From: Escherichia phage Mizar
Reading direction: 5' to 3' (one strand)
DNA length: 64,000 nt
Sequence record: PV714129.1
The notes under the pieces are model-generated. The model saw nothing but the letters and a program-made list of their open reading frames with translations, did not search any database and was not told where the DNA came from. The position numbers and the translations under genes were made by a program. Positions 28,606-30,168 of this stretch are shown piece after piece (position 1 is the first letter of the stretch; the number at the start of each line of letters is the position of its first letter).

Positions 28606-29176
28606 AAAAGTTTCGGATTTGTTCCCAATTCAGAGAACGAAGATTATTACGAGAGTACTGAATTACTTCAATACCAGCTTGTTTTAGAATATCTGCCCAA
28701 TTTTCAGGAGATCGGTCGTATAATTCTGCGTATACAACCTTTTTAATACCTGACTGCGTAATAGCTTTAGTGCAATCAGGACACGGAGAAAGCGTAGTAT
28801 ATAACGTAGCACCTTCAATAGAATTACCTTTACGAGCGGCAAACAAAATTGCATTCAATTCTGCATGGATTTCATTATTAGCAGACCATGCACTATGAGC
28901 AGCTCGATGTTCTTTGGCTAAAACAAAATTATCTACCCGTCCAAATGCTGTAGTGCCTTCTTTATGCCCAGCAACGATGACTGGGATTGGTTTATTCTTC
29001 AACCAACCATTTTCAGATGCATGTTCGCAACAGTTAACGCCACCTGCAGGTGAACCGTTATACCCAGTAGAAATAATGCGCCCATCTTTTTCAATGACTG
29101 CGCCAACTTTCCATGAACAACATTTTGATTCTTGAGAAATCAGATATGCAATCTGAAGGTATGTGCTAGCTTTCAT
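28595..29176 (-). CDS. cd: dCMP deaminase
   Basis: 193 aa, same as T4 Cd; zinc-binding motifs HAELNAI and SPCPDC. Confidence 0.95.
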   Translation of the reverse strand: MKASTYLQIAYLISQESKCCSWKVGAVIEKDGRIISTGYNGSPAGGVNCCEHASENGWLKNKPIPVIVAGHKEGTTAFGRVDNFVLAKEHRAAHSAWSANNEIHAELNAILFAARKGNSIEGATLYTTLSPCPDCTKAITQSGIKKVVYAELYDRSPENWADILKQAGIEVIQYSRNNLRSLNWEQIRNFCGE

Positions 29177-30168
29177 TATTGAACCTTATTAATATAAGTT
29201 AACAGCTCTTTAGTTTGTTCCCAACTGATGCACGCATCGGTAACGGAAACGCCATAGGACATATTATCGGAAATTTTTTGATTTCCTTCATGTAGGAATG
29301 ATTCTATCATAATTCCTTTGACCAAATCATTAGCTGCTAAATTTTTACCAATACCAATTTGATTGCTATAATGTCCATCAGCGTTTGCATGGCTACAGTC
29401 AACCATTACATAATGATTCAGACCTACTGCCCTTGCTTTGTTAGAAGCTTCTTGAATATCAGAAGAATGATAGTTCGGGCCGTTGGTCCCGCCACGCAAT
29501 ACGATATGCGTATTCTGATTACCTTCAGCTTCAACAATGCCTACAGTACCATCGACGTCCATACCCATATACCGATGAGGCCAGGCGGCACTATACATCG
29601 CGTCTGTAGCTACTTTAATAGAACCATTGGTTGCGTTCTTGAAGCCTACGCACATCGGTAGACCCGAAGCAATTTCACGATGTGTCTGACTTTCAGTCGT
29701 ACGGGCGCCAATAGCAACCCATGAGAAAATACCAGAAAGATACTTAATCGTGAATGGGTCTAATACTTCAGTTGCTAATGGAAGTCCCATACGTAGAAGT
29801 TTACGACACAATGTTCGTGCAACTATAAGACCGTGGTTCATATCAAAACTTCCGTCAAGATATGGATCATTTACAAGACCTTTCCAACCTACGGTAGTTC
29901 GAGGCTTTTCAAAATAAACGCGCATCACTAACAGAACATTAGGAAGACGAGTTTGAAGTTCAGCCAGACGTTTGCCGTATTCAACAGCAGCAATAGGGTC
30001 ATGAATTGAACAAGGACCTACAACAATAAGTTTGCGTGGGTCTTCACCGTTCATAATCGAATTAACTTGTTCGCGATGAGAAGCCACTTGTGATGCGTAA
30101 GCTTCCGACAAAGGAATAATCTCAGCCAGTTCTTTTGGAGAAATAAGTTTTCTGATGACAGGTAACAT
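29176..30168 (-). CDS. 3-deoxy-D-arabino-heptulosonate-7-phosphate (DAHP) synthase, class I, AroG-like
   Basis: 330 aa; ATG confirmed with SD AAGGA; aligns along its length with E. coli AroG: GPCSIHDP, MRVYFEKPRTTVGWKGL, IGARTTESQ, HIVLRGG, ESFLHEGNQ, TDACISWE. Confidence 0.9.
   Translation of the reverse strand: MLPVIRKLISPKELAEIIPLSEAYASQVASHREQVNSIMNGEDPRKLIVVGPCSIHDPIAAVEYGKRLAELQTRLPNVLLVMRVYFEKPRTTVGWKGLVNDPYLDGSFDMNHGLIVARTLCRKLLRMGLPLATEVLDPFTIKYLSGIFSWVAIGARTTESQTHREIASGLPMCVGFKNATNGSIKVATDAMYSAAWPHRYMGMDVDGTVGIVEAEGNQNTHIVLRGGTNGPNYHSSDIQEASNKARAVGLNHYVMVDCSHANADGHYSNQIGIGKNLAANDLVKGIMIESFLHEGNQKISDNMSYGVSVTDACISWEQTKELLTYINKVQ

Follow-up and report, generated by a model that had tools for sequence, protein, structure and literature searches.

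The window analysed here is the whole 64,000-nucleotide stretch of DNA from Escherichia phage Mizar (sequence record PV714129.1). On its minus strand, between the genes cd and pseT, lies a complete open reading frame (ORF) of 330 residues whose product is assigned to the DAHP synthases (DAHP being the 7-phosphate of 3-deoxy-D-arabino-heptulosonate). The original prediction, made from the sequence alone, had placed a class-I DAHP synthase at this position, and its coordinates, length and neighbours were all found to be correct. The enzyme is probably active, and the residues that separate it from its bacterial relatives suggest that it has been released from feedback control.

By family assignment, the ORF encodes a full-length DAHP synthase of type I-alpha. 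The protein was matched by Pfam DAHP_synth_1 (PF00793) with 252 bits against a cut-off of 25.5, which bears out the class-I identity first proposed. The NCBIfam equivalog for aroFGH, TIGR00034, was matched over residues 5-327 with 428.5 bits (curated cut-off 173.2), and NF009395 with 455.9 bits (cut-off 343). The scores for two isozyme models stayed under their cut-offs: 364.5 bits for the AroG model NF006723 (cut-off 568) and 386.7 bits for the AroH model NF009396 (cut-off 463). The protein also belongs to the phage family PHROG 5045 (606 bits), with residues 1-330 lying on positions 8-337 of the 341 in the profile. In the Protein Data Bank (PDB), the top sequence match was 6agm, the AroF of E. 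coli, which aligned over residues 8-327 with an E value of 4e-105; the DAHP synthase (DAH7PS) of N. meningitidis and E. coli AroG came next. Identity from end to end is 51%, 47% and 44% to E. coli AroF, AroG and AroH, respectively. The full-length alignment with AroG that had been proposed is therefore real, but by these comparisons the closest E. coli isozyme is AroF.

The catalytic residues were then compared in an 11-sequence alignment, containing proteins from eight phage genera and E. coli AroF, AroG and AroH, and in a larger alignment of 130 sequences. The metal ligands are C53, H260 (in DCSHAN), E289 (in MIES) and D311, which correspond to the AroG tetrad C61/H268/E302/D326. These four are invariant in both alignments. 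The KPR(S/T) motif that binds erythrose 4-phosphate (E4P) is K88-P89-R90-T91, equivalent to AroG K97-P98-R99-T100. The phosphoenolpyruvate (PEP) residues are R83, G154-A155-R156, K177 and R225, equivalent to AroG R92, G163-A164-R165, K186 and R234. In the 11-sequence alignment, none of the residues for metal, PEP or E4P varies. Every signature that the original prediction had quoted (GPCSIHDP, KPRT, GARTTESQ, HIVLRGG, EGNQ and DACISW) is present in the protein. Its choice of the histidine and glutamate ligands did not stand, since H221 of HIVLRGG and E294 of EGNQ are conserved but do not bind the metal; those roles belong to H260 and E289.

An AlphaFold model of the protein, built from a 47-sequence alignment, had a mean per-residue confidence (pLDDT) of 92.2 and a predicted template-modelling score (pTM) of 0.91. 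When the model was compared by Foldseek with solved type I-alpha structures from N. meningitidis and E. coli, the TM score was 0.94-0.96, with a root-mean-square deviation of 1.5 Å. The model keeps the fold of the family, that is, the (beta/alpha)8 barrel, the helices of the N-terminal extension and the beta6a/6b hairpin (strands 198-203 and 209-214). A 3-deoxy-D-manno-octulosonate 8-phosphate (KDO8P) synthase or an inactive paralogue was considered and ruled out: only DAHP synthase models and structures were matched, none for KDO8P synthase, all the named proteins among the 120 closest listed are DAHP synthases, and the catalytic residues are invariant. The protein is thus expected, as far as these comparisons can tell, to catalyse PEP + E4P -> DAHP + Pi.

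The regulatory parts of the protein are different. As the original prediction had pointed out, the N-terminus is 8 residues shorter than that of AroG; it is 9 residues shorter than that of AroF. A longer N-terminus from an upstream start is impossible because the ATG used is the earliest start codon past an in-frame upstream stop. The short N-terminus is a property of the whole phage family: 48-52 residues precede the catalytic cysteine in 32 of 32 phage-clade proteins, compared to 58-95 in the 98 bacterial proteins of the 130-sequence alignment. The absent stretch covers the equivalents of AroG residues 1-8 and of AroF Asn8.

The effector site itself is remodelled. The conserved site for aromatic effectors, formed by AroG P150, Q151, S180 and F209 with N-terminal residues of the partner subunit, is not preserved in the phage protein, which bears on regulation and not on catalysis. 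At the effector site, the phage protein has I141, K142, G146, P171, Y200 and A214, corresponding to the AroG changes P150>I, Q151>K, D155>G, S180>P, F209>Y and T223>A. P150, Q151, S180 and F209 are kept at 93-100% in the bacterial set, and I, K, P and Y are present at 97-100% in the phage clade. When we looked for positions that are at least 90% conserved within each group yet differ between the groups, only 6 of about 330 were found, namely AroG 150, 151, 155, 180, 209 and 223. Each of the six is part of the effector site or adjoins it: four are among the listed positions of the site, 155 is a stabilising aspartate, and 223 is two residues from V221, at which V221A is resistant. On these alignments, the differences between phage and bacterial enzymes are concentrated in the allosteric site, and the catalytic core is untouched.

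Several of these positions are known from feedback-resistant mutants. Feedback resistance is complete in AroG P150L and D146N, and S180F is resistant as well; Gln151 and Ser180 contact the main chain of the effector, and Asp155 stabilises the region (PMC9529685). For AroF, N8K, P148L and Q152I are feedback-resistant, with N8K making the enzyme insensitive to Tyr (PMC11843938). The phage family is naturally altered at the equivalents of AroG P150, Q151 and S180 and has no AroF N8 region, a set of changes that metabolic engineers make on purpose when they want the pathway deregulated. The residues differ from the engineered ones (Ile and not Leu, Lys and not Ile, Pro and not Phe), and the equivalent of AroG Asp146 is unchanged. 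Compared with the Tyr-sensitive E. coli AroF (PDB 6agm/6agl), the phage protein shares the fold, the metal, PEP and E4P residues, and the Gly at the Tyr/Phe selectivity position (AroG 211), which is kept in the phage proteins as in AroF. It differs from AroF in having Ile-Lys for Pro151-Gln152, Pro for Ser181, Tyr for Phe210 and Gly for Asp156, as well as two deletions (5 and 3 residues) and a 1-residue insertion in the C-terminal third. Since the first 8-9 residues are missing and the residues that anchor the effector are replaced, the phage enzyme is probably insensitive to Phe, Tyr and Trp. The possible escape from Phe and Tyr control that the original prediction had raised from the N-terminus is strengthened by these substitutions, which it had missed.

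The features of the locus are collected in Table 1.

Table 1. Features at the DAHP synthase locus of the window
Feature	Position	Strand	Basis
DAHP synthase coding sequence, 330 aa, type I-alpha, AroF-like	29176..30168	minus	ORF list, profiles, alignments, structural model
Shine-Dalgarno sequence TAAGGA, 5 nt 5' of the DAHP synthase ATG, overlapping the stop codon of the small upstream ORF	30174..30179	minus	sequence read directly
cd, dCMP deaminase (Pfam dCMP_cyt_deam_1)	28595..29176	minus	ORF list and domain match
pseT, polynucleotide kinase (HAD_PNKP and AAA_33), upstream of DAHP synthase	31265..32164		domain matches
Resident cd.2, 78 aa, DUF7320; first gene of the proposed transcription unit	30289..30525	minus	ORF list and family match
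cd.2' remnant ORF, 41 aa from ATG (51 aa from GTG at 30332); C-terminal half of a foreign cd.2	30177..30302 (..30332)	minus	DUF7320
Junction repeat, right-hand copy, TAATGAAAGCTAGCACAT	29161..29178	minus	window sequence
Junction repeat, partner copy, TAATGAGAGCTATCTCAT	30274..30291	minus	window sequence
Candidate promoter of the sigma-70 / T4-early type (TTTACA-17 nt-TACTAT, preceded by TG), located between cd.3 and cd.2	30554..30582	minus	consensus scan

The gene has its own Shine-Dalgarno sequence, as had been proposed. At its other end, the stop codon overlaps the ATG of cd by one base (TAATG at 29178..29174, minus strand), which suggests that the two genes are translationally coupled. Upstream lie cd.2, cd.3 (DUF7355) and two more small ORFs, followed by pseT. 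The phage-like codon usage that had been noted was also borne out: the G+C content at third codon positions (GC3) is 0.30, compared to 0.14-0.34 in the adjacent phage genes and 0.50-0.57 in E. coli aroF, aroG and aroH, with aroF at 0.50. Two antisense ORFs within the gene, at 29359..29661 and 29750..29917 on the plus strand, were treated as spurious. The candidate promoter coincides with an annotated T4 early promoter, which is at the same place between cd.2 and cd.3. A terminator scan found no terminator-like sites on the minus strand from the candidate promoter to cd. From this arrangement, we infer that cd.2, cd.2', the DAHP synthase gene and cd are probably co-transcribed early from this promoter. 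No tRNA genes or Rfam families (at the gathering threshold) were found across the window (1..64000).

The window belongs to Mosigvirus: the 5 kb around the gene share 99.1% identity with Escherichia phage phiEC1, and 98% with JS09, ST0 and SHSML-52-1. Within this genus, the gene is accessory, as in RB69 and mar005P1 cd.2 directly adjoins cd. When the window was aligned with mar005P1, a clean insertion of about 1.1 kb was seen between the cd.2 stop and the cd start. The insertion contains, upstream of the DAHP synthase gene, the remnant of a second cd.2. This remnant is 51% identical over 39 aligned positions (E 1e-4) to the C-terminal part of the cd.2 orthologue of the Enterobacter phage CIP9 and 55% identical over 33 positions to that of Klebsiella phage PWKp18. 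Orthologues of the CIP9/PWKp18 type precede the DAHP synthase gene in other genera, and the remnant is less like the resident cd.2. The remnant ORF is listed as a hypothetical protein in JS09 and LF82-35. Two Mosigvirus substitutions are synonymous in its 41-residue frame and non-synonymous in an alternative frame of 55 residues. The latter, a minus-strand ORF at 30122..30289, was treated as spurious for this reason.

At either end of the cassette stands one copy of an 18-nt direct repeat. The copies read TAATGA-AGCTA... and agree at 14 of 18 bases, and in cassette-free phages a single copy forms the cd.2 stop and cd start. This repeat could mark a recombination joint or permit deletion. Because a foreign cd.2 remnant lies upstream of the gene, it seems that a different T4-like genus was the source of the cd.2'-DAHP synthase block in Mosigvirus, and that the block was transferred through recombination between conserved flanking sequences. 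The same remnant disfavours a deletion in RB69 as the whole story, although later deletions between the junction repeats may have occurred. A recent sweep of the cassette was also considered from its apparent uniformity and dropped: the gene is 99.2-99.4% identical between Mosigviruses, most flanks are similarly alike at 94-99%, and the low identity in the region is mainly due to a divergent cd.3 allele. This allele, with its upstream spacer (30526..30861), is about 75% identical to LF82-35 and phiC120, compared to 94-99% for the neighbouring genes. The pattern suggests that cd.3 was exchanged for another allele, which makes the operon locally mosaic.

The gene is not new. About 200 phage genomes already have it annotated, and the family is represented by PHROG 5045. 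By tblastn, a homologue was found in 212 phage records, 139 of them with at least 95% identity; phages NBG1 and JQD51 encode the same protein (100% identity), and JS09, ST0 and PhAPEC2 one with 99% identity. The cd-pseT interval was matched at 90% identity or more by about 149 records, of which 139 cover it fully. Depositors have named the homologues AroG, aroF, DAHP synthase class 1 or aldolase, and annotated examples from T4-like phages include JS09_0232, PEi20 gp218, X20 and KLB31. The homologue in the Klebsiella Kanagawavirus KLB31 has been discussed as an auxiliary metabolic gene (AMG) with a possible role in providing aromatic amino acids (PMC11845039), and a DAHP synthase domain has been mentioned in Mosigvirus phiC120 (PMC8022965). 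The gene call by itself thus adds nothing, as GenBank already holds an identical, correctly named protein and the AMG idea is published.

Most of the homologues examined sit in the pseT-cd interval, and they do so in seven T4-like genera: Mosigvirus (JS09), Marfavirus (PWKp18), Kanagawavirus (CIP9, PEi20), Winklervirus (X20), Gualtarvirus (PSTRCR_121), Bragavirus (SdyM_006) and Kagamiyamavirus (EcS1). Two metagenomic T4-like contigs also carry the gene between pseT and cd. T4 has cd.1 at the equivalent place and no DAHP synthase, in line with the original prediction. The immediate surroundings differ between genera. In Mosigvirus the gene abuts cd and has the cd.2 remnant upstream, whereas in Winklervirus, Kagamiyamavirus and Bragavirus an ORF of about 112 residues lies between DAHP synthase and cd. 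In the Gualtarvirus Providencia phage PSTRCR_121, this place is taken by a homing endonuclease gene (3490..4056 of its stretch), and a gene for a SegD-like endonuclease lies slightly upstream. The presence of a homing endonuclease beside the gene suggests one possible vehicle for mobilising the interval between T4-like phages. More distant homologues, with 35-52% identity, were seen in records filed as phage, including four Acinetobacter-phage records. One of the distant records is in fact a contig of a Salmonella genome. Others are short contigs filed as 'Bacteriophage sp.' that carry no annotation, and the 'Bacteriophage sp.' matches are 35-45% identical.

The origin of the family was examined with a neighbor-joining tree of 130 sequences, comprising the window protein, seven other phage proteins, AroF, AroG and AroH, and 119 of the 120 closest database proteins. 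The 32 phage-type sequences were monophyletic in 20 of 20 bootstraps, and this lineage is restricted to T4-like phages. Their sister group in the tree is the enterobacterial AroF clade, with the bootstraps covering only the monophyly of the phage clade. Pairwise identity within the phage clade is as low as 53% (53-77% between genera), with the catalytic residues invariant. Within genera, the ratio of non-synonymous to synonymous substitution rates (dN/dS) is 0.10-0.30, calculated from only 2-8 substitutions. A recent capture from an E. coli host was ruled out by the 51% identity to AroF, the difference in GC3 and the monophyletic phage clade. The monophyly and the phage-like GC3 point instead to an old capture followed by residence in phages.

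The best explanation of these findings, to which we give a probability of about 0.68, is that the phage makes an active, feedback-deregulated DAHP synthase that feeds the shikimate pathway. The host DAHP synthases are under dual control, by feedback inhibition and by TyrR/TrpR repression, and deregulation of this enzyme is the essential step for driving carbon into the pathway (PMC4174253). As it is such a key lever on flux, a single gene could suffice to secure the supply of chorismate and aromatic compounds. Under this explanation, the enzyme would be made early, from the promoter upstream of cd.2, on a cd.2-cd.2'-DAHP synthase-cd message. After a shut-off of the T4 type, the host would be unable to de-repress aroF, aroG and aroH, and the deregulated phage enzyme would keep carbon moving to chorismate regardless of the pools of aromatic amino acids. 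The payoff would be a supply of aromatic amino acids to build virion protein, and perhaps of cofactors made from chorismate, such as folate via para-aminobenzoate, or quinones.

Several observations weigh against this explanation. The gene is dispensable, being missing from RB69, mar005P1 and T4. No further shikimate-pathway gene was found in the annotated stretches inspected, so any gain relies on downstream host enzymes. The promoter is a consensus match, and such matches are no more numerous in the region than expected from shuffled sequence. For all the phage homologues, the searchable literature holds annotation-level mentions and no assay, complementation, transcript or metabolite data. 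The bacterial set that defines the six discriminating positions consists of the 98 top-scoring matches and is therefore skewed to AroF-like sequences. Finally, the phage protein still has the regulatory hairpin and the greater part of the N-terminal extension, and conservation in the phage clade reaches 95% or more at 13 of 15 positions of the effector site, compared to 41% of all columns. Such strong conservation of an altered site allows for a new role, for instance another effector or an interface, and fits a site still at work at least as well as one that has been switched off.

This last point speaks for an active DAHP synthase that has kept its allostery, with the pocket binding another effector or an aromatic amino acid in a new geometry; the phage would then have adjusted the regulation and not done away with it. 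Such an enzyme would account for I141, K142, G146, P171, Y200 and A214 being nearly invariant across genera that are only 53-77% identical, and for the retained hairpin and selectivity Gly. On the other hand, single changes (P150L, S180F, Q152I or N8K) end inhibition in AroG or AroF, and four such positions are altered in the phage protein. No data point to a candidate ligand, and the conservation may equally stem from the tight-dimer interface, to which the effector-site helix contributes in AroG. We therefore consider retained allostery unlikely. A repurposed site, in which the six clade residues make up a binding pocket for some other ligand or partner such as a nucleotide or a phage metabolite, is more doubtful again. 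If it were true, entry into the shikimate pathway or the withdrawal of E4P from the pentose-phosphate pathway would be coupled to phage nucleotide metabolism, which would explain the linkage to cd.

The benefit could also lie in the drain on substrates and not in the product. Removal of E4P and PEP would draw the non-oxidative pentose-phosphate pathway towards pentose phosphates for nucleotide synthesis, or would lower PEP. The TAATG link to cd, their probable co-transcription and the presence of nrdAB, td and frd in the region, about 10 kb away, would suit this idea, and so would the want of a downstream shikimate gene noted above. The argument is one of stoichiometry alone, however, and since the cd-pseT interval is hyperplastic, with many small ORFs that have nothing to do with one another, being next to cd says little about function. 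In metabolic engineering, deregulation of DAHP synthase by itself raises aromatic flux (PMC4174253). We regard a substrate drain as improbable. A shift in substrate or product, such as the use of another aldose phosphate to make some other ulosonic acid, for instance in a modification pathway, or an inactive passenger, is the hardest to credit. It could be entertained because the phage homologues are known from sequence alone and the gene is accessory within Mosigvirus. Against it stand the KPRT motif for E4P and the invariant PEP and metal residues, the aroFGH equivalog score above its curated cut-off with no match to a KDO8P synthase model, and conservation in at least seven genera with a within-genus dN/dS of at most 0.30, on very few substitutions. 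RB69, the type species of Mosigvirus, has no copy, and the gene therefore is not among the core functions of Mosigvirus, not even in DNA modification.

A deregulated phage DAHP synthase would have a parallel in cyanophages, in which psbA, talC and CP12 are AMGs for rate-controlling steps of host pathways. In both cases, a single host-derived gene for flux control is carried by a lytic phage that shuts off the gene expression of its host. The pathway differs, and in the phage DAHP synthase regulation of the host type has seemingly been edited out of the enzyme itself. If so, this would be a clear case of a virus removing host regulation from a captured enzyme, and the naturally deregulated enzyme might be a ready-made part for metabolic engineering. 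The entry into the shikimate pathway is one of few AMGs for amino-acid pathways in well-studied, genetically tractable coliphages. Nature provides isogenic-like variants that either have the gene, such as JS09-type phages, or do not, such as RB69 and mar005P1, and the benefit of this AMG is therefore directly testable.

One further gene near the locus was noted. Downstream of cd, at the position of gp31.1/31.2, an ORF of 102 residues (28297..28605, minus strand) matches the Sm-like SH3 domain WYL_2 (PF10902) with 34.8 bits. Its orthologue is labelled 'tail fibers protein' in several GenBank records, which looks like a propagated mis-annotation.

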